Positions 3,058 to 58,587 of a stretch of 64,000 bases of DNA are shown here, piece by piece. The position numbers and the translations under genes are program-made. Source of the stretch: Rhodobiaceae bacterium (GTDB lineage: Bacteria > Pseudomonadota > Alphaproteobacteria > Rhizobiales > JANQQB01); NCBI GenBank assembly GCA_028285165.1, contig JANQQB010000331.1, forward strand, positions 4,942-68,941, read 5' to 3'. The stretch's first letter is position 1; the number at the start of each line of letters is the position of its first letter. The notes below the pieces were generated by a model that saw nothing but the letters and a program-made list of their open reading frames with translations, had not been told where the DNA came from and did not search any database.

Positions 3058-4115
3058 GCCTTGCCTCCCTGAATGCCCTTGAGCAACGTCGTCTTGTTGA
3101 CGACACCGACGTCCTCACCATCGTCGTTCTGGATGACGATCGGCTGGTCCGTGGTGGTGGTAATGTCGATGAGCTGGTCGAGATCGGTACCGTGCGAGGC
3201 GCGCGGTGCCTGCTGCAGATCTTCGCCGTTGGCAGGCTGGTAGGAGCCGATGTCTTCCATGATGGAATGGGCAAAGACCAGTTTCAGCTTGGAGATGCCT
3301 TCCACGAAGTCCTTCACGTAGTCGTCCGCCGGTTTCGTGACGATTTCCTCCGGCGTGCCGATCTGGACGATCCGGCCGTCCTTCATAATGGCGATGCGAT
3401 TGCCGATACGGATCGCTTCGTCGAGGTCGTGGGTGATGAACACGGTCGTCTTGTGCAGTTCCGACGACAGCGCCATGAACTGGTCCTGCAATTGCCGGCG
3501 AATCAAGGGATCGAGCGCCGAGAACGGTTCATCCATCAGGAGCACTTCCGGATCCGACGCCAACGCGCGGGCCAACCCGACGCGTTGTTGCATGCCGCCC
3601 GAAAGCTCGCGGGGAAACCGGTCCTCGTAGCCGTCGAGATTGACCAATCCCAGACAGTGTTGCGAGACTTCCCACCGCTTCGACTTCGGCTCGCCGCGCA
3701 CTTGCAGCGGAAAACCGACATTGTCGCGCACGGTCCGGTGCGGCAGGAGCGCCATGTGCTGGAACACCATGCCGATCTTCATGGCGCGCATTTCGCGCAG
3801 CTCATTGCCGTTCAGCGCCAGCATGTCCCGTCCGAGCATGTGAATACTGCCGGATGTCGGTTCGATCAGGCGGTTCAAGTGGCGCACCATGGTCGACTTG
3901 CCCGACCCCGACAGCCCCATGACACAGAAGATCTCGCCACGTTTCACAGTGAACGAGCAGTCGGCAATGCCGACCACGCAGCCGAATTCCTGCAGGACCT
4001 CCGGCTTGGTGAGTCCGCGTTCCTTGATGGCCTGCATGGCCTCGTCGGAGCGGTCGCCGAAAATCTTCCAGACATTTTCTAGAATGATGACATCGTCGTC
4101 AGAGTTTTCAGACAC
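3054..4115 (-). CDS. proV: Glycine betaine/proline ABC transporter ATP-binding protein
   Basis: Walker A GLSGSGKST, signature LSGGMQQRV, Walker B LLMDEPFSALD, and a C-terminal CBS-like regulatory tail as in ProV/OpuAA. Confidence 0.9.
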   Translation of the reverse strand: MSENSDDDVIILENVWKIFGDRSDEAMQAIKERGLTKPEVLQEFGCVVGIADCSFTVKRGEIFCVMGLSGSGKSTMVRHLNRLIEPTSGSIHMLGRDMLALNGNELREMRAMKIGMVFQHMALLPHRTVRDNVGFPLQVRGEPKSKRWEVSQHCLGLVNLDGYEDRFPRELSGGMQQRVGLARALASDPEVLLMDEPFSALDPLIRRQLQDQFMALSSELHKTTVFITHDLDEAIRIGNRIAIMKDGRIVQIGTPEEIVTKPADDYVKDFVEGISKLKLVFAHSIMEDIGSYQPANGEDLQQAPRASHGTDLDQLIDITTTTDQPIVIQNDDGEDVGVVNKTTLLKGIQGGKA

Positions 4116-12140: not shown

Positions 12141-13232
12141 CTAAATGTCCAGCACGGCATTGCGCCGCACACTGAAGCCGACTTCGGCGAGTTTCGTCCA
12201 GCCGCCGATTTCGGCCCGGTTGGCCATGAAGTCGTCCTGGATCTTTGCCGCGAGCCGGCTGTGTTCGCGGGTTTCGGCGAAGACTTCCGCCGAGGCTTCC
12301 CCAAAGCTCTCGTAGATCTCTTCGGAAAACGACCGCAATTCGACGCCGTGCTCGTTGATAAGCCTGGAAAGGTAGAGCCCGTTATTGGCCGTGTTTTCTT
12401 CATAGGCGGCGGCATGCTCTTCGTAGCAGCAGACCTTGATCAGTTCCTGATGGCGTTTGCTGAGGCCGTTCCACCAGGAGGCATTCATGCCGAACGACAG
12501 TCCGCCGCCGGGCTCGTGCATGCCGGGATAGTAATAATACTTGGCTGCTTCATGGAATTTCATGAAATAGTCGTTGTACGGACCGACCCATTCGGTGGCG
12601 TCGACGGCACCTGAAACCAGGTTTTCGTAGATCTGACCGCCCGGCAGGGAAACCGGCGAAGCGCCAAGCTTGGCCATGACATCGCCGCCAAGGCCCGGGA
12701 TCCGCATTTTCAGACCTTTCAGGTCGTCGGCGGATTCAATGTCCTTGTTGAACCAGCCGCCCATCTGCGTACCGGTCGATCCGCAGGGCAGGGCCTTCAA
12801 TCCGAATTCCGACGACAATTCATCCCACAGGACCTGGCCGTTCTTGAACTTGATCCAGGCGTTCCACTCGATCGTCGTCATGCCGAACGGCACGGCGGTG
12901 AAGAACGCGAAGCCGGGATGTTTGCCCTTCCAGTAATAGTCGGCGGCGATATAGGCCTGGGCGTTGCCGGAGGCGACTTCGTCGAAGGAATCGAACGCAC
13001 CGACCCGTTCGCCGGCGGCAAAATACTGGACGGCGATCTCCCCATCGCTCAATTCGCCGATCCGGCCGGCGAGCCGCTGCGCGCTGATGCCGAGGCCGGG
13101 AAAGTCGCGCGGCCAGGTGGACACGATCACGAGATCGACCTTGGTCTGGGCGATGGCCGGTGTCGCAAGCGAGGTCGCGGCGGCCCCTCCCGCCGCCAGC
13201 GCTGCCCCTTGAAGGAATTTACGGCGTTGCAT
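12141..13232 (-). CDS. TRAP transporter substrate-binding protein (DctP family, COG4663-like), Tat signal
   Basis: MQRRKFLQGAALAAGGAAATSLATPAIAQ is a twin-arginine signal. The start was set at the ATG at 13232 within track ORF 12141..13298. It is the first gene of the dctP-Q-M order. Confidence 0.85.
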   Translation of the reverse strand: MQRRKFLQGAALAAGGAAATSLATPAIAQTKVDLVIVSTWPRDFPGLGISAQRLAGRIGELSDGEIAVQYFAAGERVGAFDSFDEVASGNAQAYIAADYYWKGKHPGFAFFTAVPFGMTTIEWNAWIKFKNGQVLWDELSSEFGLKALPCGSTGTQMGGWFNKDIESADDLKGLKMRIPGLGGDVMAKLGASPVSLPGGQIYENLVSGAVDATEWVGPYNDYFMKFHEAAKYYYYPGMHEPGGGLSFGMNASWWNGLSKRHQELIKVCCYEEHAAAYEENTANNGLYLSRLINEHGVELRSFSEEIYESFGEASAEVFAETREHSRLAAKIQDDFMANRAEIGGWTKLAEVGFSVRRNAVLDI

Positions 13233-20650: not shown

Positions 20651-21745
20651 CTAGAGATCCAGCACGCGGTTGCGCTTCTGGACGTAGGCCATGTCGGACA
20701 GGGCCATCCACTTACCGATATCGGAGCGGGCAGCGGCGAAGCTGTCGTAGATCTTTTTCGACAGTTCGCTGTGGTCGCGGGCTTCTTCGAAGACTTCCTG
20801 AGCGGCTTCGCCGAAGCTGTCGTAAACGTCGTCGTTGAACTCACGCAGTTCGACGCCGTTTTCCTCGATCAGCCGGGTAAGGTAGACACCGTTATTGGCG
20901 TTGGTTTCCGCCATTTGACGGGCATTTTCCTCGTTGCACGCGGCTTCCAGGATCGCCTGATGGGTCTTCGACAGGCCGCTCCACCAGGACGCGTTCATGC
21001 CGAAGGCGAGCTGCGAGCCCGGCTCGTGCATGCCCGGCCAGTAATAGTATTTGGCGGCTTCGTAGAACTTCATGAAGTAGTCGTTGTACGGGCCGACCCA
21101 CTCGGTGGCGTCGACGGCACCGGACACGAGGTTTTCATAGATCTGACCGCCCGGCAGGGAAACCGGCGAAGCGCCGAGCTTGGCCATGACGTCGCCGCCG
21201 AGGCCAGGAATCCGCATTTTCAGACCCTTGAGGTCGTCAGCCGATTCGATTTCCTTGTTGAACCAGCCGCCCATCTGCACGCCGGTATTGCCGCAGGCAA
21301 AGTTCTTCAGGCCGAATTCGCCGGCCAGTTCGTCCCACAGAGCCTGACCGCCGGCATATTTGATCCAGGCGTCGATTTCCGTGTAGGTCAGGCCGAACGG
21401 AACGGCCGTGAACGGCGCCCAGCCCGGGTGCTTGCCCTTCCAGTAATAGTCGGCGGCGATATAGGCCTGCGCGTTGCCGGAGGCGACTTCGTCGAACGAA
21501 TCGAACGCGCCGACGCGTTCGCCGGCAGCAAAGTATTGCACTGCGATCTCGCCGTCGGTCAGTTCGCCGATGCGGGCGGCCAGACGCTGGGCGCTGATGC
21601 CGAGGCCCGGGAAGTCCCGCGGCCAGGTGGAGACGATCACAAGATCGACTTTGGATTGGGCGATCGCGGGAGCAGCCAGTGCGGTGGTGGCGGCAGCGCC
21701 CCCGGCTGCAAGGGCCGCGCCCTTGAGGAATTTACGGCGTTCCAT
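20651..21745 (-). CDS. Orphan TRAP substrate-binding protein (DctP family), paralog of 12141..13232
   Basis: Tat signal MERRKFLKGAALAAGGAAATTALAAPAIAQ, with long identical peptide blocks shared with the other DctP (VDLVIVSTWPRDFPGLGISAQRLA, GASPVSLPGGQIYENLVSGAVDATEWVGPYNDYFMKF). No adjacent permease genes. Confidence 0.85.
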   Translation of the reverse strand: MERRKFLKGAALAAGGAAATTALAAPAIAQSKVDLVIVSTWPRDFPGLGISAQRLAARIGELTDGEIAVQYFAAGERVGAFDSFDEVASGNAQAYIAADYYWKGKHPGWAPFTAVPFGLTYTEIDAWIKYAGGQALWDELAGEFGLKNFACGNTGVQMGGWFNKEIESADDLKGLKMRIPGLGGDVMAKLGASPVSLPGGQIYENLVSGAVDATEWVGPYNDYFMKFYEAAKYYYWPGMHEPGSQLAFGMNASWWSGLSKTHQAILEAACNEENARQMAETNANNGVYLTRLIEENGVELREFNDDVYDSFGEAAQEVFEEARDHSELSKKIYDSFAAARSDIGKWMALSDMAYVQKRNRVLDL

Positions 21746-35085: not shown

Positions 35086-36168
35086 TCAGTCTCCGTCGAG
35101 CGAATTGAAGCCGAGTGTCAGGCCAAGCGCTCTCGGAAGCCCCTCCGACAGGAGGCCGGCACCACCGCCCAAAGGGATCCGGGCGTAAGCGAGCTTTTGG
35201 TGTCCTTCGATATCGCCGGCGGTCGCGATCCAGCCTCTTTTGCGGGCGTTGAGCGTTTCGATGACGCCGATCGCCTGGTTGATCTCGAACCGGAACGAGC
35301 CGATCACCCATTTGTCGTCAGGCGCTAGAAGCGCGCTGAAATTGCGATTGGCAATCAGATCTCGCATGGCTTCCAGATTGGCCTGCATGGACCGGAACGT
35401 CAGATCCGAGCGCCAGAACGGCGCGCGTTTCGGTTTCGCCGCCTCGGGCGCCTTGCCGAGCGATGCCCCGATCTTCAGATCGCGCACGATCGTCACCTGT
35501 TCATTCGCTGACCGGACAAAATCCTGAAGCACTTCCGCGGCGGAGCGGTAGACCGAATTGTCGGGTCCTGGATTGCGGGCGAGCTTTCCATAAGGGCCGG
35601 TCCAGCCGTCGAGCAGTTCGCCGGCGGTCAACGCAACGTTTCCGGCGATCGCCTGGGCATAGCGGCACCGGAACACGTCGCCCTCGCTCAGCGTATCGGA
35701 CCCCGTGCCAAAGAGCGCGAACTCAAGCGCCAGGAGACCCTGAACGGCAACGCTTTTCCTGCGCAGCGTGGTCGCGGCAATCGCGCTCGGGCTTTGTCCC
35801 GCGATCAGGGCCTGGACCTGCTTGAGCCCGCGTCCGCGCCGGTCCGGCCAGAAGAACAGGCGCTCGAACCGGTTGTCGGCTCGCGCCGGCCCGAAACGAA
35901 TGAACTCGATCCTCGACCAGGCGTTTACGAGACGACCGAAATCCTCACGTGCCGTTGCGAGCGCCGGTGCCCCCGGCGTCTCGCACAAGGCGGTGAGGCT
36001 GGAAGACTGGCGGTCCGATGCCGCCTTCAACGCGCGATAGCCGGGTTCGACCACATTATCCAGAATATGGGCGACGACCGATGCCCGCGCGTCCTCATCG
36101 GCCGCAACAGGAGCAGCCGGAAGCAGGCAAAGGACAGCAACGAGGACAGGCAGACGGCGTTTCATCAC
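35086..36168 (-). CDS. Imelysin family protein (peptidase M75-like), copy 2
   Basis: Signal peptide MMKRRLPVLVAVLCLLPAAPVAA, a helical imelysin-like sequence, and a 4-nt overlap with the DUF1111 gene. Confidence 0.65.
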   Translation of the reverse strand: MMKRRLPVLVAVLCLLPAAPVAADEDARASVVAHILDNVVEPGYRALKAASDRQSSSLTALCETPGAPALATAREDFGRLVNAWSRIEFIRFGPARADNRFERLFFWPDRRGRGLKQVQALIAGQSPSAIAATTLRRKSVAVQGLLALEFALFGTGSDTLSEGDVFRCRYAQAIAGNVALTAGELLDGWTGPYGKLARNPGPDNSVYRSAAEVLQDFVRSANEQVTIVRDLKIGASLGKAPEAAKPKRAPFWRSDLTFRSMQANLEAMRDLIANRNFSALLAPDDKWVIGSFRFEINQAIGVIETLNARKRGWIATAGDIEGHQKLAYARIPLGGGAGLLSEGLPRALGLTLGFNSLDGD

Positions 36169-37754
36169 AACGACTCAAGGAACCGGATCAGGTCGGCGCG
36201 CTCGGCGGATGTCAGGTCGACAACACGATCGCGCGCGGCCTGCGCTTCGCCACCATGCCACAAAATCGCTTCAAGCAGCGAGCGGGCGCGCCCGTCGTGC
36301 AAGAAATAGGTATGCCCGTTTACGGTTTCGGTAAGGCCGATGCCCCAGAGCGGCGCCGTGCGCCATTCCTGGCCGGAGGCATCGCCGACGGGCCGGCCGT
36401 CGGCCAGACCAGGGCCCATATCGTGCAACAACATGTCGGTATAGGGCCAGATCAGCTGGAACCGGTGTTCTTTCTGGAGCGCATCGCGCGAGGTCACGAA
36501 TTTCGGCACGTGGCAGGCGACACAACCGGTTTCGTAAAACACCCGCTTGCCCCGCAGCACGTCCGGCGCATCAACATCCCGGCGCGCCGGCACCGCCAGA
36601 TTGCGTGAATAAAAGACCACCAGATCGAGGATCGGGTCGGGGGCTTCGGTATCGCCGAGCCGCTCCTGGACGCCGTGCGGGGCGGCCACACAAGCCGCCT
36701 GGTTTTCGGTGCAATCCCCCCAGGCTGCGGGCGCATGCGGATTGGAGATGCCGATATCTCCGGCAAAGGCGCCGGCGCTCTGCGCGTGCACAGTCGGGTT
36801 GGAGGCTTTCCAGCCGAAGCGGCCGAGCGTCAGAGCCTCGGTCGCCGGATCACGCACGATGCTCACTTTTCCCGAAATGCCGTCACCATCCAGATCATCG
36901 GGATCGGCGAGCGCTTCGATGTCGACGCGGTGGATCGCTTCCAACAATCCAAGTCCGATCATCGGCGGCGCGATGCGCGGCGACAGCATGGTTTCCGGGT
37001 CGAGCGGTCCGTAGCCCAACCGGTCGACGGAATAGGTCGGCTTGCGCAGGCTGACGGTCTCGCCGCCGTTCAATTCGACTTCGATTTCCTCATAGGTGAT
37101 ACGCATGCGGCCTTCACCGGGCAGGCCGGGAACCGCAAAATCCTGCAATTGTCCGCCATAAGTCGGCTCGGGAATGCGCAGCAGCGTCTTGCGGGCGAGT
37201 GCGTCGTGTTCCGCCTCGGTCCGCGGCGGTACCGAGAGCCTCAGGAACATCGAGGTCGCCAGGTCGTCGGGACCTTCTGGAGGATGGCCGCGGCCGTCCT
37301 TCAAATGGCAGCGCTGGCAGGACCGCGCGTTAAACAGCGGTCCCAATCCGTCGGACGCCTGTGTCGACGATGGCGACGACACCCAGACTTTTTTGAAAAG
37401 CCCGTTTCCGAGCTTGAAATCCTGTTCGCCTTCGAAGCTGAGATTGCCCAGCGGATCGGAAAACGCGTTGCGGTTGGCGCGAGCCCGGGACGTTGCGGCA
37501 CCGGCCGACATGCGCTCGAAACGCTCTGGCGCGGAGAAATCCGAGGTTGGCCGCGTCACAGTTTCGACGCGTGCCCGATCCTTGTCGCTAAGGTCCTGGC
37601 GGACCGTCAACCCGGTTGCAGCGGCGTCCAACGCTACAACGCCTAGACCAAACAAACAAAAGGGGACAAACAGAACAGGGGCGGCTCCTGAGAAACCACC
37701 CCTGCATGCCGACCTCACCAATCGGTTTCGGTCGGAATCGGACGATGCGGTCAT
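36165..37754 (-). CDS. Di-heme cytochrome c 'oxidoreductase/peroxidase' (DUF1111 family)
   Basis: Two CxxCH motifs (CQRCH, CVACH). The ATG at 37754 overlaps the stop of the Bfd-like gene (ATGA). The longer track ORF to 38075 was rejected. Confidence 0.85.
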   Translation of the reverse strand: MTASSDSDRNRLVRSACRGGFSGAAPVLFVPFCLFGLGVVALDAAATGLTVRQDLSDKDRARVETVTRPTSDFSAPERFERMSAGAATSRARANRNAFSDPLGNLSFEGEQDFKLGNGLFKKVWVSSPSSTQASDGLGPLFNARSCQRCHLKDGRGHPPEGPDDLATSMFLRLSVPPRTEAEHDALARKTLLRIPEPTYGGQLQDFAVPGLPGEGRMRITYEEIEVELNGGETVSLRKPTYSVDRLGYGPLDPETMLSPRIAPPMIGLGLLEAIHRVDIEALADPDDLDGDGISGKVSIVRDPATEALTLGRFGWKASNPTVHAQSAGAFAGDIGISNPHAPAAWGDCTENQAACVAAPHGVQERLGDTEAPDPILDLVVFYSRNLAVPARRDVDAPDVLRGKRVFYETGCVACHVPKFVTSRDALQKEHRFQLIWPYTDMLLHDMGPGLADGRPVGDASGQEWRTAPLWGIGLTETVNGHTYFLHDGRARSLLEAILWHGGEAQAARDRVVDLTSAERADLIRFLESL

Positions 37755-38206
37755 TGGGCCTCGGCTTGTTCCTTCACGGGCGCGTTCGCGAGATCGCCAT
37801 GGCGGATCCGGTCGGGAGACGAGGACACATGAAGCGCCTCCCGACCGGTTGCACCACGGGTAATACCCGTCGCGGTCTGGGGAACCATGCGGGCTCGCTG
37901 GTCGCGGCGGTCCTTGAGGGCGCGCAGACGGGTCAGCGTGCGTTCCGCCCAGCGGCGTCGTTCCGCATGCCGTGCCTGGTCGGCGAAGATCGGGACATGC
38001 GGGCTGTCGCCGTTGCGGATTTCGTCGACCGTGGCGATCATCACGTCGATCAGGGTCGGGAAACATCCGCAGCATTTGCCGCGTTTGTTCAGCCCGTGCA
38101 GGACGGCGCCGGGGGTCAGGTGGATCCAGGGGTCGTCGGCCAGAAGGCTCGCAATGACTCCATCGATATCCGCCTTAGAGATGATGTTGCAATGGCAAAT
38201 GATCAT
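37751..38206 (-). CDS. Bfd-like (2Fe-2S)-binding protein with ~90-aa basic C-terminal extension
   Basis: MIICHCNIISKADIDG...GKCCGCFPTL shows the C-x-C ... C-x2-C pattern of bacterioferritin-associated ferredoxin. Confidence 0.75.
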   Translation of the reverse strand: MIICHCNIISKADIDGVIASLLADDPWIHLTPGAVLHGLNKRGKCCGCFPTLIDVMIATVDEIRNGDSPHVPIFADQARHAERRRWAERTLTRLRALKDRRDQRARMVPQTATGITRGATGREALHVSSSPDRIRHGDLANAPVKEQAEAQ

Positions 38207-38232: not shown

Positions 38233-39465
38233 CTATTCGAACACGGCACTTGGATTGTCGAGACTGTCGGAGCCTTCGAAGTCGATGGATCCGAGATCGA
38301 GCGCGGCGACCACCCGTTCGATCGAGCGGGTCTGATCGACGAGGCCGTCGATGGCGGCTTGCACCACACCATTCCCGACCGCGTTGCCTTCGCCGATCAT
38401 CTGATCATAGGCTTCGATGCTCTCCGCGCGGGCTTTCATGGCCGCCATGGCGCCAACTGTCGCGTCGAGTTTGTCCGTCAGTTCGGCATCGAGAGCCGCA
38501 TCCGATTGCGCGACGAGGTCCGACACGGACGGTCCGGAAACCACCGACCCATCAACCCGGCGATAATGACCCGAATAGACGTTGCGAATGCCGATCTGAT
38601 TGAAATAGTGGGAATTGTGCGTGTTGTCGGCGAAACAATCATGCTCTTCTTCCGGGTCGTGCAGGAGCAAGCCGAGCTTCATGCGCTCGCCGGCCAGTTC
38701 GCCGTAGGACAGAGACCCCATCCCGGTCATGAGAGCCGTCAGGCCGGCCTTCGGATCTGACGTGACGCCGGTACGCGCGGCACCGCCGTCGGCCCAATTC
38801 CCGACCATTTCTTCCAGATCTGCGATCAAAAGCGTTGATGCGGATTTCAGATAGGCTGCGCGCCGGTCGCAATTGCCGTTGGTGCAGGCGGCTGTATCAA
38901 AGTCGGTTGCCGGGCGGTTGCCAGCGCCGGCTCCCGTGCCGTTGAGATCCTGGCCCCAGAGCAGAAACTCGATTGCGTGATATCCGGTCGCGACATTGGC
39001 CTCGACATCTTCCGCCTCGTGCAGCACGTCAGACAGGAGGGTCGGCGAGATCGTACTGGCATCGACGCTTGCGCCGTTCACGGTCAAGCTGGCATTGGCG
39101 ATGACGTTGACGGTGTAGAGCGCGTTTTCGTCCGCCTCGGTGCCGTATGAGGAATCGACATAGTCGATCAGCCCTTCGTCGAGCGGCCAGGCATTCACCC
39201 GTCCTTCCCAATCGTCGACGATGGCATTGCCGAACCGAAAGACTTCGGTCTGCTGATAGGGAACCCGCGCGGCGACCCAGGCGGCGCGCGCGGCCAGCAG
39301 CGTTGCCTCCGACGGCGCAGCGATCAGGGCATCGATAGCCGCGTCGAGCGCACGCGCGGTTGTCAGACTGTCTTCGAAACCGGCCAGTGCGATATCCGCG
39401 TAGGTCGACACGATCTCCTCAGGCGTTGCTGCACTTGCGGGAGCAGACCACAGGCCGAGACCCAA
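38233..39465 (-). CDS. Imelysin family protein (peptidase M75-like), copy 1; true start probably upstream of 39465
   Basis: GYHAIEFLLWGQDL (imelysin GxHxxE motif). The track start is the TTG at 39465. A signal-peptide-like sequence continues in frame upstream to 39534 without a canonical start (see findings). Confidence 0.8.
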   Translation of the reverse strand: MGLGLWSAPASAATPEEIVSTYADIALAGFEDSLTTARALDAAIDALIAAPSEATLLAARAAWVAARVPYQQTEVFRFGNAIVDDWEGRVNAWPLDEGLIDYVDSSYGTEADENALYTVNVIANASLTVNGASVDASTISPTLLSDVLHEAEDVEANVATGYHAIEFLLWGQDLNGTGAGAGNRPATDFDTAACTNGNCDRRAAYLKSASTLLIADLEEMVGNWADGGAARTGVTSDPKAGLTALMTGMGSLSYGELAGERMKLGLLLHDPEEEHDCFADNTHNSHYFNQIGIRNVYSGHYRRVDGSVVSGPSVSDLVAQSDAALDAELTDKLDATVGAMAAMKARAESIEAYDQMIGEGNAVGNGVVQAAIDGLVDQTRSIERVVAALDLGSIDFEGSDSLDNPSAVFE

Positions 39466-39552: not shown

Positions 39553-40053
39553 CTAGTGAAAATGTTCGCGGGGGGGCCGTGCGGCGATATCCTCGATCAC
39601 GGCGTAGGGCACGGGCATCAAGGTCTGTCCCATGTCGTTCAGGCTTCCGGCTAGGCCGTCTGCCGTTTTTTCGGTTTCGGACCGGCCATTGGGCTCGACC
39701 AGGTGGTCGAGGCAAAAGCCGGCGGATGCGGCATCGTTGTGCTGCAGGGCGGCGATGAGCGACACGGCGAGGCACTCGTCACGGCACAGGCGTTGGCATT
39801 GAAACGGAAAGAACCGGCGCGGTTCGTGCGACCACGTCCGGAACGTGCGCACCCAGCAGGTCAGCGCAGAAAGCGCAACGCGCCCGTCCGTCGGGCCCAA
39901 TTCCTTGGCAAAGAGCGACCAGGCCAGTTCCCAAGGTGTGATGGATCCGGTTTCGTAACCGGCCATCCAATACCGATAGCCGTCGATCACAAGCCGTTCC
40001 GGAAGGCGGTCCAACAGGCAGGTCCGGTTGCCGCACGGGAGTTTTATCGCCAT
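39553..40053 (-). CDS. Hypothetical 166-aa Cys-containing cytoplasmic protein, first gene of the imelysin operon
   Basis: MAIKLPCGNRTCLLDRLPERL...FPFQCQRLCRDECLAV. The ATG at 40053 has GGAG 8-11 nt upstream. No family recognised. Confidence 0.5.
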   Translation of the reverse strand: MAIKLPCGNRTCLLDRLPERLVIDGYRYWMAGYETGSITPWELAWSLFAKELGPTDGRVALSALTCWVRTFRTWSHEPRRFFPFQCQRLCRDECLAVSLIAALQHNDAASAGFCLDHLVEPNGRSETEKTADGLAGSLNDMGQTLMPVPYAVIEDIAARPPREHFH

Positions 40054-40221
40054 CGCATCACTCCGTCTCGGTGAGGCGATCGCGGAAACCGGCGTGCGAA
40101 GAGGAGGCCAGTACTGGAAGAACATGGGCGTCCGGTCGTGCGAAAATCGGGCAAATCGGCAGCCCTTCCGGCTCCGACAGTCCGCCTTTCCAACCGACAA
40201 TCCGTCGGTGCGCAAAGCGAA

Positions 40222-40391
40222 GGTTTCATCTCATCGATCCAATCAACAGGGTTAAAGGCCCAGCCATCAGACTTGTCGCGAATGCAACGCAGAACCATAA
40301 GCACATAGAATCTGACGTGACAACAAAAAAGATAACAAAAACAGTAGTTTAGAATGATTATAGATTGGAATTATTCCAATTCTAAACTAGC
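40222..40391 (-). promoter_or_regulatory. Promoter/operator plus conserved leader module, copy A
   Basis: On the minus strand: TTAGAA-17 nt-TATAAT (-10 at 40362-40357). Nested palindromes are TAGTTTAGAAT-N23-ATTCTAAACTA (40345-40389) and TTGGAAT-T-ATTCCAA (40365-40379). Homologous to 42043-42206. Confidence 0.6.
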
Positions 40392-40395
40392 GCTT

Positions 40396-40599
40396 TCAGG
40401 ACCGTGGCTCCGCCGGCAGGCCGAGGCGTTTCAAGAGGCCGACAAGCGTCACCGGCTCAGACGTGCCGTCCTCGGGGTGGTCGCAGCCTTGCAGCCGGTC
40501 GATTTCAAAGCCGATCGCGCCGCAATTCTCGCAATCGCCGCAGCAGGTCTTGGCGACCGAGAGCAGATCCGAGCGGGATACGGAGGATTTGTCTGACAT
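40396..40599 (-). CDS. Hypothetical 67-aa Cys-rich protein (CCGDCENCG...C), coupled to the DUF2325 gene
   Basis: Its ATG directly follows the TGA of the upstream gene (TGAATG). Third-position GC is about 80% by my count, supporting coding. Five Cys residues. Confidence 0.5.
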   Translation of the reverse strand: MSDKSSVSRSDLLSVAKTCCGDCENCGAIGFEIDRLQGCDHPEDGTSEPVTLVGLLKRLGLPAEPRS

Positions 40600-41862
40600 T
40601 CATTGCTCCCCTGTGCGTGGGGTGTCCAAGGTCGAGGCGAGCCGTTCGAGCGCTGTGCGAAACGAGGACTGGCTGGCGCTGCGCAGCGGCAGAAACGGCT
40701 TTTCCAGACGTTGACAGGCCCGCTTCGCCCGGATGCACGCATCATGGCTCACGCAATCGACCGGACACAGAACGCAATCCACCGACGGCAGGAGCCGGTC
40801 CAGCCGTTGCGGTGTCTGCTCCAGACCTCCGTCATGGTGACGCAGGTCCACGTCGAACTCAGCGGCCACTGTGCGCAGGCGATCGACGACGCTGTTGAGC
40901 CCCCCGATATAAAGAACGACCTTGCCGGAGAGGGCGTCGCTGCGATCAAGCGATTCAGGCTCCGGCGTGTCCCGATCCGCAGACCGATTGGTTTCGACAA
41001 GCCCTGTCCCGTCGCCGACCGGAGTGCCGAAGAGCCGCAGGCGCTCTTCAAGGGCCTTCTCGCTGCGTTCCGCCTGCCGTGCCCGTTCGCGGGCCGATAC
41101 CAGGGCCCGTTCGAGTTTTTCCATGCGCAGATTCGTCTTGCGGCGACGTGTTCCGTGTCGGGCAAAAGTAGTTTTTTCGGCTGCCGCAACCTGACCCTTG
41201 AGCCGGGCCATCTCCTCGCGCAGGCCGGCAATCTCCTCGTCGCGAGCCCGGATGGCGTCATGCAGGCCCGCTTCGTTGCGGCGGGCGCGGTCGAGCGCGT
41301 CCTGCAGTTGATCGCGCAGCGCGACGGTCTCAACGGCTTGCTTGCGGAAGGTCGCGCCGGCAAGATGCGACAGCATGTGCACCTCGCCGAAGATCCGGTT
41401 GCGCATTGGGGCAGGGATATGGCCATGCGTCATGAATGCCCAATAGGCGGCGGCGATCTGGCCCTTGTCGCGCATGTCGTCCCACAGGTCGGCAAGGTCC
41501 GTGTCGTCGCGTGTGCGGCCGACACGCCGAACGGCGCCGGTATATCGCTCGTCCATCATCTTCTGGAACAGGCGTGTGAACGGGCCGTTCTTTGTCGATT
41601 CCGCGACGAAATAACCGTGGATCTCATAGTCCGCCGCGTCGGCGTCGATGACGACGGACAATCGGTTTGCAAGCCGCCGAAGATCCGTCACCGAGGCACA
41701 GGTGCCGACAATGGAGCAGTGCACGTTTTCGGGAATTTCATGCAGCTTGATACGTCGCTTCTGCCCGTTCGTGCGGCTTTGGGGGCGGTTGAGACTCGAA
41801 CCAAGGTCTGCAAGCCTGCCTGAAAGCGAAAATTTCGGCAGATTGTCTCGCGCATCACACAT
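40600..41862 (-). CDS. DUF2325 domain protein with N-terminal unknown domain and central coiled coil
   Basis: C-terminus VVLYIGGLNS...RHHDGG...VDCVLCPVDCVSHDACIRAKRACQRLEKPFLPLRSAS fits my recollection of DUF2325. The middle ~100 aa are heptad-like and Arg/Glu/Ala-rich. Confidence 0.65.
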   Translation of the reverse strand: MCDARDNLPKFSLSGRLADLGSSLNRPQSRTNGQKRRIKLHEIPENVHCSIVGTCASVTDLRRLANRLSVVIDADAADYEIHGYFVAESTKNGPFTRLFQKMMDERYTGAVRRVGRTRDDTDLADLWDDMRDKGQIAAAYWAFMTHGHIPAPMRNRIFGEVHMLSHLAGATFRKQAVETVALRDQLQDALDRARRNEAGLHDAIRARDEEIAGLREEMARLKGQVAAAEKTTFARHGTRRRKTNLRMEKLERALVSARERARQAERSEKALEERLRLFGTPVGDGTGLVETNRSADRDTPEPESLDRSDALSGKVVLYIGGLNSVVDRLRTVAAEFDVDLRHHDGGLEQTPQRLDRLLPSVDCVLCPVDCVSHDACIRAKRACQRLEKPFLPLRSASQSSFRTALERLASTLDTPRTGEQ

Positions 41863-42042
41863 CAGCCGGTTCCGGCTCCAAAATGTGTCTCGCAGCCTTG
41901 TCTGTCGTCAGCATGACATGCCGGCAGGCAGGCAATGCCACAACTGCAATTGATCGATAATGGAAAGAAATGGTCTTTCGGAATCGATGAGCGAATGGCG
42001 TGTGTGACCTGTCCGGATCGAGCCGGTTCCGCAAGGCGCATG

Positions 42043-42206
42043 GCTTTCATCTCCAATCAACGGGGGGCAAGGCCCTGTCATCAGATGGGTCACGAGGCAA
42101 CCGTGACCGGAGGGTATAGAATTGCGACGCAATCGCAAGTGTTTTTGTCGAAAAATCAATAGTTTAGAATGATTATACTTTGGAATTATTTCAATTAAAA
42201 AGTAGC
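42043..42206 (-). promoter_or_regulatory. Promoter/operator plus conserved leader module, copy B
   Basis: TAGTTTAGAATGATTATA (42160-42177, with minus-strand TATAAT at 42177-42172) and TTGGAATTATTTCAA (42180-42194). Downstream blocks are shared with copy A. Confidence 0.55.
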
Positions 42207-42372
42207 CTGCCGCATGTCGTCGGCGGCGTCGGAGGAAGTCGGCGGCCAGCCGGGATCGGTCGGATCGATTCCATAGATGGCCGATGGGCGACGGCTTTCG
42301 GAAGGCTTGCCAAGTCGAAGCGATTGATTGTCTACTGACATCTGGATCGGGCAAGAGCGAAGGCGGGGTATC

Positions 42373-50910: not shown

Positions 50911-51073
50911 TCAACCGGGCTTCGCCGATCCCTGATCCCGCATCATGCGCATGATCTGCTGCTCAAGGGCGGCATAGCCGTCCATGGCGATGACGGTCTC
51001 CTTGTCGGCGATGCGCGCGCCGTTCTTGAAGGCCGGGACGATCACATCGTGCACCTTGCCGGGACAGCGTGAC
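50911..51073 (-). pseudogene. 3'-terminal remnant of a NitT/TauT-type ABC ATPase gene (copy of 57784-57955)
   Basis: The translated tail VHDVIVPAFKNGARIADKETVIAMDGYAALEQQIMRMMR parallels the C-terminus of the intact ATPase. Segments 50939-51073 and 57821-57955 are identical at 125/135 nt by hand count. Upstream ATPase motifs are absent. Confidence 0.75.
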
Positions 51074-51275
51074 GCGAAAGGATTTTTGCGAGAACAAAAA
51101 ATCGAGTCCTCGACATTTTGGGGGTAAGAAGAAACTTTTAGTGCTCGAGGCAGCGATGATTTCGATCGCTGTATATCGTAAAAGTCCGGTCGATGCGCTT
51201 GATCGATGAAACGTCGAAAGTTTCCCCTGACCCTGCTTTTCGGAGCAGATAGTCGATTGAAAGTCGATGTCAGTA

Positions 51276-57783: not shown

Positions 57784-58587
57784 TCATTCGTTCGCTTTAT
57801 TGCCCGACGCCCCTTCGGCACGCATCATGCGCATGATCTGCTGCTCAAGGGCGGCATAGCCGTCGATGGCGATGACGGTCTCCTTGTCGGTGATGCGTTT
57901 GCCGTTCTTGAAGGCGGGGACGATCACATCGTGCACCTGGCCCGGATTGCGTGACATGAAGATGATCTTGTCGGCGAGAAAGATCGCTTCTTCGATATCG
58001 TGGGTCACCATCACGATTGTGGTGTCCTGGGCGCGGGCGATCTCGATCAGCAATTCCTGCATGTGCCAGCGCGTTTCCGCGTCGAGCGCGCCGAACGGTT
58101 CGTCCATCAGGAGCAATGACGGGTCGTTGGCAAGCGTCCGGGCGATCGCCACGCGCTGCTTCATGCCGCCGGACAATTGCGAGGGATAGGCGTCGGCAAA
58201 ATCCGAAAGATGCACGAGGTCGATGAAATGCCGTGCCCGCTCGCGACGTTCTCCCGCGGGCACGCCGTTGATGCGCATACCGTATTCCACATTGCCGCGC
58301 ACATTCAGCCAGTCGAACGACGTATAGGCCTGGAACACCATGCCGCGTTCCCGGTCCGGTCCTTCGATCGGATGGCCGTCCAGCACGAGCGAGCCCTCGC
58401 TCGGCTCCTCGAGACCGGCGATCATGCGCAGGACGGTCGACTTTCCGCATCCGGACGGACCCAGGATGACGCAGATCTCGTTGGCGGCAACCTCGAACGA
58501 GATGTCCCGCAACGCCTCGAAGCTGGCGCCGCGGCCGACTGGAAACCGCTTTGAGACGCCGCTCAGGTGCAGTTTTGCCTCGGGCAT
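57784..58587 (-). CDS. NitT/TauT-family ABC transporter ATP-binding protein
   Basis: GPSGCGKST, LSGGMKQRVAIARTL, LLMDEPFGALD. The start was set at the ATG at 58587 (MPEAKLHLSGVSKRF). Confidence 0.9.
   Translation of the reverse strand: MPEAKLHLSGVSKRFPVGRGASFEALRDISFEVAANEICVILGPSGCGKSTVLRMIAGLEEPSEGSLVLDGHPIEGPDRERGMVFQAYTSFDWLNVRGNVEYGMRINGVPAGERRERARHFIDLVHLSDFADAYPSQLSGGMKQRVAIARTLANDPSLLLMDEPFGALDAETRWHMQELLIEIARAQDTTIVMVTHDIEEAIFLADKIIFMSRNPGQVHDVIVPAFKNGKRITDKETVIAIDGYAALEQQIMRMMRAEGASGNKANE
57821..57955 (-). repeat. Direct repeat partner of 50939-51073 (3' end of the intact ATPase gene)
   Basis: Hand alignment gives 125/135 identical nucleotides in the same orientation. Confidence 0.8.

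Follow-up and report, generated by a model that had tools for sequence, protein, structure and literature searches.

To our knowledge, two transcription factors, Irr and RirA, explain nearly all iron control in the Rhizobiales and related bacteria. The iron control element (ICE) of Irr, TTTAGAA-N3-TTCTAAA, is found in Rhizobiales as well as Rhodobacterales, in which the sign of control depends on its position (Rodionov et al. 2006, PMC1698941). The imelysin gene irpA and bfd-bfr are predicted members of alphaproteobacterial iron regulons, which include the Irr regulon (PMC1698941). Here, we analyse a 64,000-nucleotide stretch of a Rhodobiaceae bacterium (GenBank assembly GCA_028285165.1, contig JANQQB010000331.1, positions 4,942 to 68,941), hereafter the window, which carries two copies of a regulatory module on its minus strand: copy A (40222-40391), ahead of the genes for a 166-aa Cys-containing protein and an imelysin, and copy B (42043-42206), ahead of a DUF2325 gene. 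The duplication of this module is a confirmed observation, and the module comprises a genuine, probably new cis-regulatory RNA joined to a known operator. On balance, we favour a reading in which each copy would be a portable four-part control cassette acting in series, composed of an Irr operator, a promoter, a hairpin that hides the ribosome-binding site and a bridging upstream open reading frame (uORF). Its anatomy, conservation, base-pair covariation, operator phasing and uORF start-stop geometry are directly observed.

The two copies align at a mean column identity of 77% over ~250 columns and share a 55-nt direct repeat (40337-40391 and 42152-42206) at 85% identity. Exactly two occurrences each of the 18-mer TATAATCATTCTAAACTA (0 expected from shuffles) and of the leader block TCTGATGNCNGGGCCTT (0.17 expected) are present in the window, and local G+C drops to 0.31-0.34 in the AT-rich distal part compared with ~0.6-0.7 in the flanks. 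A covariance-model scan of the window returned exactly two hits, copy A at 51.2 bits (E 2.6e-14) and copy B at 42.2 bits (E 2.3e-11), with the third-ranked score at 10 bits. Both copies are kept in place in four further related genomes. One of these, a metagenome-assembled genome (MAG; locus L001) with a DUF2325 protein 83% identical to that of the window, has them at the two corresponding places; the others (L280, L281/L282 and L283) were found through the 166-aa protein (74-78% identity) and show the same gene order with both copies present. An exact search of species-representative genomes for the operator 24-mer gave no match. An initial annotation, made from the sequence alone, had proposed two homologous segments with an AT-rich distal part as a duplicated regulatory module, to be abandoned if orthologous loci lacked it. 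The alignment, the repeat, the 18-mer and the dip in G+C bear this proposal out, and the module is conserved at both of its places in all five genomes. The gene order it gave, with copy A before the 166-aa protein and imelysin and copy B before DUF2325, was also recovered, but its "two different operons" turn out, from the gene order in L280-L283, to be adjacent parts of one conserved iron gene cluster.

The evidence for an RNA element lies in the leader, where each copy contains two predicted structures:

40275-40288, minus strand: 5' hairpin of copy A (UGCG...CGCG type), from folding; its sequence varies between species
42088-42108, minus strand: 5' hairpin of copy B (GGUCACG / CGUGACC, 7 bp), from folding and as a palindrome
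40234-40275, minus strand: 42-nt stem-loop of copy A, with outer helix GUCUGAU / AUUGGAU over the ribosome-binding site, inner helix GGG / CCC and apical loop CCUUUAA
42048-42089, minus strand: 42-nt stem-loop of copy B, with outer helix UCUGAU / AUUGGA over the Shine-Dalgarno (SD) sequence GGAG, inner helix GGG / CCC and apical loop CCUUGCC

The 5' hairpin recurs at the corresponding place in relatives (GUCGC/GCGGC, GUCGC/GCGAC or GCCGC/GCGGC), with a modest stability (mean z = -1.3 over 60 loci). The 42-nt stem-loop follows the consensus CCUUUGAUGUCUGGGCCUUGAACCCUUUCGAUUGGAGG, with AUG or GUG 5-9 nt further on. RNAalifold, applied to 60 diverse segments of 120 nt, recovered UUUGAU / AUUGGA around GGG / CCC, and in a gapless 42-column alignment the 13-pair structure left 93.8% of cells paired, compared with 30-63% when the partners were slid. 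Four pairs in this alignment show double changes, and its covariation score was reached by none of 500 shuffles. As the 3' strand of the outer helix is fixed in this large set by the search pattern given below, a sample selected through the 166-aa protein provides the better test. In that sample, diverged lineages keep the architecture with changed sequences:

Inner-helix variants: GGA/UCC (L203), GAAG/CUUC (L215), CUGGG/CCCAG (L202), CCGGG/CCCGG (L201) and CCAGGG/CCCUGG (L259)
Outer-helix variants, always engaging GGAGG: CUUCUCAAC/GUUGGAGGG, AACCU/AGGUU and GAACC/GGUUC

Across 49 distinct variants, double changes occur in all five inner-helix pairs, and the fourth pair, which is free of selection bias, takes six pair types. 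The apical loop is CCUUGAA-like, and its CUU is invariant in all 49, including lineages in which every stem base has changed. The upstream strand pairs with the SD region at -6.93 kcal/mol, against -5.72 kcal/mol for shuffles, and does better than these in 90% of loci. Collectively, covariation argues for a conserved helix covering the SD sequence, with moderate support for its outer part and good support for the inner helix. The initial annotation had taken conservation past the start site as a sign of a shared cis-regulatory RNA element or a second operator rather than a promoter alone, and had suggested a covariation analysis of the leader; the compensatory changes in both helices agree with the RNA reading.

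The element was not found in the literature searched for imelysin with riboswitch, for the motif sequence, or for post-transcriptional control of Irr and bacterioferritin. Likewise, none of the 4227 families of Rfam 15 gave a gathering-level match in the window, and permissive scans of the window and canonical copies returned only noise (E > 4). Several further structures were considered and set aside. A third helix, pairing the SD sequence with the first codons after the start, looks convincing in Mesorhizobium and Brucella but amounts overall to -7.51 against -7.53 kcal/mol in shuffles, while a conserved hairpin ~15-35 nt into the uORF is present at many loci and not significant overall (mean z -0.55). 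A mini-ORF within the element (AUG-UCU-GGG-CCU-UGA), or a coding core, was also rejected: no SD sequence lies upstream, the variable positions covary as RNA pairs, and members of the clade differ in the frame relation to the start codon. As a separate observation, an Afifella locus with an fbpA-like gene (L103:155-274) has GCACGC-GCCA-GCGUGC followed by U7 directly after the element's start codon, in the signal-peptide coding region. This hairpin resembles an intrinsic terminator, and many loci of Mesorhizobium and Phyllobacterium have weaker GC hairpins at this place.

A small riboswitch would share several of these properties. Its internal loop and hairpin would bind an iron-linked metabolite or metal (Fe2+, haem or an Fe-S-related compound) directly and so open or close the ribosome-binding site without the help of a protein or small RNA. 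The unpaired nucleotides are nearly invariant across families, the ribosome-binding site lies in a conserved helix, the gene association is tight and functionally coherent, and 42 nt falls within the range of the smallest known aptamers. Nevertheless, we consider a riboswitch unlikely, given a plain succession of stem, internal loop, stem and loop with no junction and no detected pseudoknot. The copies in the window also differ in the apical loop (CCUUUAA versus CCUUGCC) and in the internal loop, which is much for a ligand pocket; genomes among the matches listed typically hold one exact-pattern copy, unlike most riboswitch classes; and no known class matches. A constitutive or physical tuner, such as a damper, an mRNA-stability element or a thermometer of the fourU/ROSE kind, with all iron control exerted by Irr at the DNA, strikes us as quite improbable. 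It would account for an outer helix that is weak and G-U-rich (CCUUU against GGAGG), as in fourU, and for the modest fold energies, and the ICE alone could account for an iron response. However, thermometers and dampers need no conserved loop, whereas CUU is invariant in the 49 variants; ROSE and the other thermometer models of Rfam gave no match; and the downstream genes serve iron storage and uptake, not heat shock.

To recover further copies, species-representative genomes were searched with the degenerate leader pattern GGGCYTTNNNCYCNKTBGATTGGA. This pattern search yielded at least 119 loci, against ~26 estimated by chance, and ~115 of the matches listed share the upstream context C(C/U)UU(U/C)GAUG. 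Nearly all of the matches listed belong to the Hyphomicrobiales (Mesorhizobium, Brucella/Ochrobactrum, Phyllobacterium, Aminobacter, Aquamicrobium, Tianweitania, Filomicrobium, Stappia and Afifella), and the downstream genes fall into three groups:

~112 of 118 listed loci: subsets of the iron cluster (166-aa protein, imelysin (irpA), bfd, bfr, di-haem oxidoreductase, imelysin, DUF1513)
2 of 118 listed loci: genes like that of an Fe3+-binding protein (fbpA-like)
3 of 118 listed loci: DUF2325 (the window, L001 and a Tepidamorphaceae genome)

Almost every genome among the matches listed has a single exact match, so the doubled state in the window's clade is unusual. In the sample chosen by the 166-aa protein only, the full element lies upstream in 63 of 80 loci and a diverged version in five, while no element was seen in Pseudovibrio, Amorphus and a few others. 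The Tepidamorphaceae MAG IP29b_bin.167 holds both kinds: its element before DUF2325 (L005/L090) is of the canonical type of the window, GAUGGCGGGGCCUUGAACUCC...GAUUGGAG, whereas its 166-aa gene (L202) is preceded by an element of the diverged type, CUUCUCAACUGGGCCUUGAACCCAG...GUUGGAGGG. Separate histories must thus be assigned to the two copies in this genome, which do not stem from a recent local duplication.

This last point bears on a further account of the two copies, in which their similarity is only the trace of a recent local duplication without function of its own. The copies do lie 1.8 kb apart in one gene cluster. Yet both persist in five genomes whose adjoining uORFs are no longer recognisably similar, the conserved parts form separate blocks (operator, -35, TGTG and stem-loop) with unalignable spacers, and a DUF2325 copy recurs in the Tepidamorphaceae genome alongside a Cys-protein copy of a different sequence type. 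We regard neutral paralogy as so improbable that it can practically be set aside.

In both copies, the stem-loop is followed by a uORF that reaches the main gene:

40044-40229, minus strand: uORF A, 61 codons, with ATG at 40229 and stop TAA at 40044-40046, 7 nt inside the 166-aa gene (ATG 40053)
41862-42050, minus strand: uORF B, with its first ATG at 42050, an ATG kept in L001 at 42041, and stop TGA at 41862-41864

In uORF B, the A of the stop codon is also the first base of the DUF2325 ATG at 41862. In the window's clade, the uORFs span 39-64 codons, and the stop falls -7 to +3 nt from the main ATG in 10 of 10 leaders of the five genomes, a spacing that points to translational coupling. A start codon always follows the hairpin; it is the gene's own start, or in frame with the gene, in 37 listed loci, and opens a uORF of 9-93 codons in 76 of 113. 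In the latter, the stop lies at the main start (as ATGA, TGATG or +2) or before a GGAGA SD sequence, and most uORFs end within ~25 nt of the main gene start. Compared with L001, the uORFs are of equal length, with no indels over 180-186 nt at 23% (A) and 43% (B) divergence. Substitutions are spread over the codon positions as 14/16/13 in uORF A and 27/25/25 in uORF B, against 5/4/52 in a neighbouring gene. Selection on the peptide was not found: peptides are unrelated among the five genomes, and substitutions are even over codon positions. The preserved length and fixed stop, combined with this evenness, imply that the act of translation is selected and not its product, and indicate that the uORF may be a translationally coupled adaptor to the main gene. 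The ~300-nt leader envisaged in the initial annotation is accordingly untranslated over ~60 nt only, the remainder being a bridging uORF that runs as far as the start codon of the main gene. As a side observation, L083, L085, L086 and ~30 further loci of Mesorhizobium have the post-hairpin start codon in the reading frame of the imelysin, which would place ~40 additional residues before its signal peptide; either this extension is translated and is then removed by cleavage or tolerated, or initiation also takes place at an internal start.

The AT-rich distal part of each copy reads as an operator of the Irr/ICE type:

40345-40389, minus strand: operator block of copy A, two tandem ICE-like boxes and an outer half-site; kept in 10 of 10 modules of the five genomes
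40348-40364, minus strand: box III of copy A, TCTATAA-TCA-TTCTAAA, 12/14 to the ICE consensus; TTTAGAATGATTATAGA on the forward strand
40364-40380, minus strand: box II of copy A, ATTGGAA-TAA-TTCCAAT, a perfect palindrome, 10/14
40380-40389, minus strand: outer half-site of copy A, TAGTTTAGAA, further out than boxes III and II
42160-42206, minus strand: operator block of copy B, an ICE-like box at 42163-42179 (11/14) and the degenerate palindrome TTGAAAT-A-ATTCCAA

The nested palindromes described earlier for copy A are both present, the outer with arms at 40338-40355 and 40379-40396, 23 nt apart, and the inner, perfect one as ATTGGAAT / ATTCCAAT at 40364-40380. A scan of the window for the ICE gave sites with at most 3 mismatches only at 40348-40364 and 42163-42179. 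The score of 12/14 first noted for the Irr-like site of copy A was reproduced, though both matches are degenerate, with a left half-site of 5/7 in copy A and 4/7 in copy B. In orthologous loci, canonical or perfect ICEs occupy the equivalent position with respect to the leader. Specifically, 113 of 115 listed leader loci have an ICE of at least 11/14 within 260 nt upstream, 50 of them perfect, against a coding background maximum of 9/14. The ICE starts at -120 to -110 from the hairpin GGGCC in 100 listed loci, and the window sites at -103 and -104. Ahead of the same gene, L009 has the perfect TTTAGAA-TTC-TTCTAAA and L010 has CTTAGAA-TTC-TTCTAAG (12/14), both followed by CTATTG...TTTTGTTGAC as in copy A, while the single ICE of Brucella is a GGAA...TTCC variant like box II. 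By these sequence criteria, the AT-rich part is identified as an Irr/ICE-type operator, doubled and degenerate in the window's clade; we infer Irr binding at its boxes, as well as the sign of control considered below.

The leader could instead be a DNA operator that a second factor (RirA, a Fur/Mur-type protein or another) uses as a roadblock downstream of the promoter, with the AT-rich part serving as a Fur box. The AT-rich block does hold ATAATCATT, which is also the core sequence of the classical Fur box. Dual Irr/RirA control is known in Rhizobiales iron operons, some of which have the ICE upstream of the RirA box (PMC1698941). However, of 20 matches to the RirA box (TGA-N9-TCA) in the window, none lies in 40200-40400 or 42030-42210, and the pattern occurs at only 12 of 115 listed related loci, near the estimated chance level. 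The AT-rich site is equivalent in position to perfect ICEs in 50 listed loci, and the leader element always includes the SD sequence and then a start codon. Moreover, the compensatory stem changes, including G-U intermediates, and the fixed asymmetric loop fit pairing of one RNA strand and not base-specific protein-DNA contacts. A DNA operator in the leader is therefore very unlikely.

Between operator and hairpin, only a TTG and a TGTG block, the latter at the extended -10 position, are conserved in an alignment of the ten modules of the clade, and these outline a proximal promoter:

40294-40323, minus strand: proximal promoter of copy A, with -35 TTGTCA at 40318-40323, TGTG extended -10 at 40302-40305 and a weak -10 at ~40294-40301
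42111-42138, minus strand: putative proximal promoter of copy B, a weak match, with -35 TTGCGA at 42133-42138, a 16-nt spacer and -10 TACCCT at 42111-42116

In ~100 species, TTGAC stands at -63 +/- 3 from the hairpin with TTTATG 17 nt later, and the -35 elements of the window fit this position (TTGTCA of copy A at -62, TTGCGA of copy B at -63). The copy A promoter, TTGTCA-N18-TATGGT, scores 9/12 and would place the transcription start near 40290; in copy B, TACCYT is kept at the -10 position in L001. A palindrome, TTGCGA-TTGCG-TCGCAA (42122-42138), also spans the -35 and spacer of copy B and was picked up in a scan as a terminator-like hairpin on the plus strand; it is not conserved in L001 and may be fortuitous. 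The initial annotation had placed the copy A promoter further out, at TTAGAA-N17-TATAAT. The motif is indeed there and scores 10/12 (as TTTAGA-N18-TATAAT), but it lies inside the ICE block with the conserved promoter downstream, so that its TATAAT is probably operator sequence and the functional promoter is probably the one further downstream. By the same token, the ICE does not overlap the -10 as had been thought: measured from the conserved downstream promoter, the operator centre lies ~68 nt upstream of the start site, which changes the expected sign of Irr control. The ICE and the -35 are separated by 34-36 nt in 85 of 107 loci and by 24 nt in the window's clade, a gap shorter by one helical turn.

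These parts suggest how the cassette could operate. The operator keeps a fixed spacing to the promoter downstream of it and is centred ~68 nt before the likely start in the window and ~79 nt in most relatives, spacings that are one helical turn apart. An operator centred near -79 or -68 is in a position usually linked to activation. From this upstream site, Irr most likely modulates transcription in response to iron or haem status; that it activates under iron limitation is a guess. The promoter would be a weak sigma-70-type one, with a TTGnnn -35, TGTG and a poor -10. The resulting leader of ~60 nt would form the small 5' hairpin and then the 42-nt stem-loop, in which a pyrimidine-rich strand pairs with the SD sequence and the inner hairpin displays a nearly invariant loop of the CCUU(G/U)AA type, and this stem-loop would limit translation initiation. 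Since its unpaired bases are conserved, the stem-loop is probably read by a trans-acting factor, and we postulate a protein or small RNA that shifts the balance between its closed and open states; both the existence and the identity of such a factor are what we infer. Initiation right after the hairpin would open the uORF, whose peptide is presumed irrelevant, and ribosomes would be relayed to the main gene, handed on by translational coupling where the uORF stop overlaps the main start.

Several observations weigh against this picture. The leaders fold no more stably than shuffles (z +0.43, -0.51, +0.71 and +1.09 in four leaders), and in longer context the outer helix is not always the minimum-energy fold of canonical sequences; a marginal stability fits a switchable element and proves nothing. 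Outer-helix variation in the large set consists mostly of one-sided transitions, the two-sided evidence coming from few divergent lineages, and the inner-helix set was chosen for at least 3 closing pairs, which biases its first three pairs. The distal promoter of copy A scores better than the proximal one (10/12 versus 9/12) and may be active as well, and Irr would then be a repressor. Finally, the operons that carry the element have no gene in common to all of them, which leaves no obvious candidate for the reader; for the same reason, autoregulation by an operon-encoded protein is unlikely and was rejected.

More tentatively, and with doubt on our part, the hairpin could be a bacterial counterpart of the iron-responsive element (IRE) of ferritin, serving as a dedicated translational operator and placed at the head of a bacterioferritin/imelysin cluster, with its CCUU loop read by a sensing protein or a small RNA. 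Candidate readers would be an iron-, haem- or Fe-S-sensing RNA-binding protein, apo-aconitase being one, or an iron-responsive small RNA. If true, this would amount to an undescribed post-transcriptional iron control in the Hyphomicrobiales, including Brucella and Mesorhizobium, carried by a cassette made portable by its adaptor uORFs.

The genes that the two copies precede in the window are as follows:

39553-40053, minus strand: 166-aa Cys-containing protein, first gene of operon A; all-helical, hypothetical in every source
38233-39465, minus strand: imelysin of operon A, after the 166-aa gene and followed by the bfd-like ORF, a di-haem oxidoreductase, a second imelysin and DUF1513
37990-38206, minus strand: bfd-like [2Fe-2S] ferredoxin ORF, MIICHCNIISKADIDG...CCGCFP, between the imelysin and the di-haem oxidoreductase
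40396-41862, minus strand: operon B, the 420-aa DUF2325 protein (40600-41862) and a 67-aa Cys-rich protein (40396-40599), a pair kept in L280-L283

The bfd-like ORF overlaps the mechanically called ORF 36165-38075 (a 636-aa oxidoreductase), which probably starts later than called, as its Pfam match begins at residue 190. The cluster in the window has bfd without bfr, unlike most relatives. The 166-aa protein heads the cluster in many species and carries conserved W-x-AGY-E-TGSI and C-x3-C motifs. It matches no Pfam or NCBIfam family, and its confident AlphaFold model of 7 helices (predicted local distance difference test score 88, predicted template modelling score 0.84) has no significant neighbour in the PDB (best E 1.1); it may represent an unclassified family. 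Copy B lies in a divergent intergenic region, with the facing ABC-transporter operon beginning on the plus strand. As noted for the window, L005 (4001-5700) and L019, a small Cys-rich protein of 58-69 aa always accompanies DUF2325. The domain adjoins the iron cluster in several lineages, and in L005 it is followed by an IsdG/ABM-like monooxygenase. In Campylobacter jejuni, a DUF2325 protein is PerR-regulated and adjoins katA (PMC9426514), which fits the iron, haem or redox role that these contexts suggest for the family. Apart from the module, the window contains long direct repeats at 12446-13232 / 20956-21745 (84-85% identity), 50939-51078 / 57821-57960 (91%) and 3484-3602 / 58055-58173 (71%), which are probably paralogous genes.

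The hairpin may add a second, post-transcriptional layer to iron control, and an RNA leader at these loci was not reported in the literature searched. More than 100 species carry the motif, among them pathogens (Brucella/Ochrobactrum) and symbionts (Mesorhizobium), and it is strictly coupled to an Irr box at fixed phasing; its defined 42-nt RNA is usable as bait for the reader. In terms of regulatory evolution, a cassette of promoter, operator, leader and start codon is reused before unrelated genes with disposable uORFs as adaptor, and it links two families of unknown function, DUF2325 and the 166-aa Cys protein, to iron homeostasis.

Compared with known systems, the operator is the most familiar part. 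It shares with the Irr ICE the 17-bp layout (12/14 in copy A, 11/14 in copy B), a place upstream of iron genes and a position equivalent to that of perfect ICEs in relatives. It differs in being doubled in the window's clade, with one box of the GGAA-TAA-TTCC type as in Brucella, in the degenerate left half of its proximal box, which by chance reads TATAAT, and in standing well upstream of the conserved -35 and not over the promoter. The uORF resembles classical operon coupling by overlapping stop and start codons in that its stop overlaps or abuts the main ATG and its peptide is unconserved, but here it links a portable regulated start codon to any downstream gene (Cys protein, imelysin, bfd, DUF2325 or fbpA). 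Like SD-sequestering riboswitches and fourU/ROSE thermometers, the stem-loop has a pyrimidine strand that pairs with the SD sequence, in part through U-G pairs, and lies just upstream of the start codon; unlike them, it has a conserved apical loop, an iron gene context and no counterpart among the Rfam families. With the eukaryotic IRE of the ferritin 5' untranslated region, which is read by IRP1/apo-aconitase, it shares a short stem, internal loop and stem with a conserved apical loop, set in the 5' leader of iron-storage genes where it can block initiation. The hairpin lacks the CAGUGN loop, the C bulge and any Rfam IRE match, and holds the SD sequence within its helix; the likeness is one of functional analogy only and implies no common descent.

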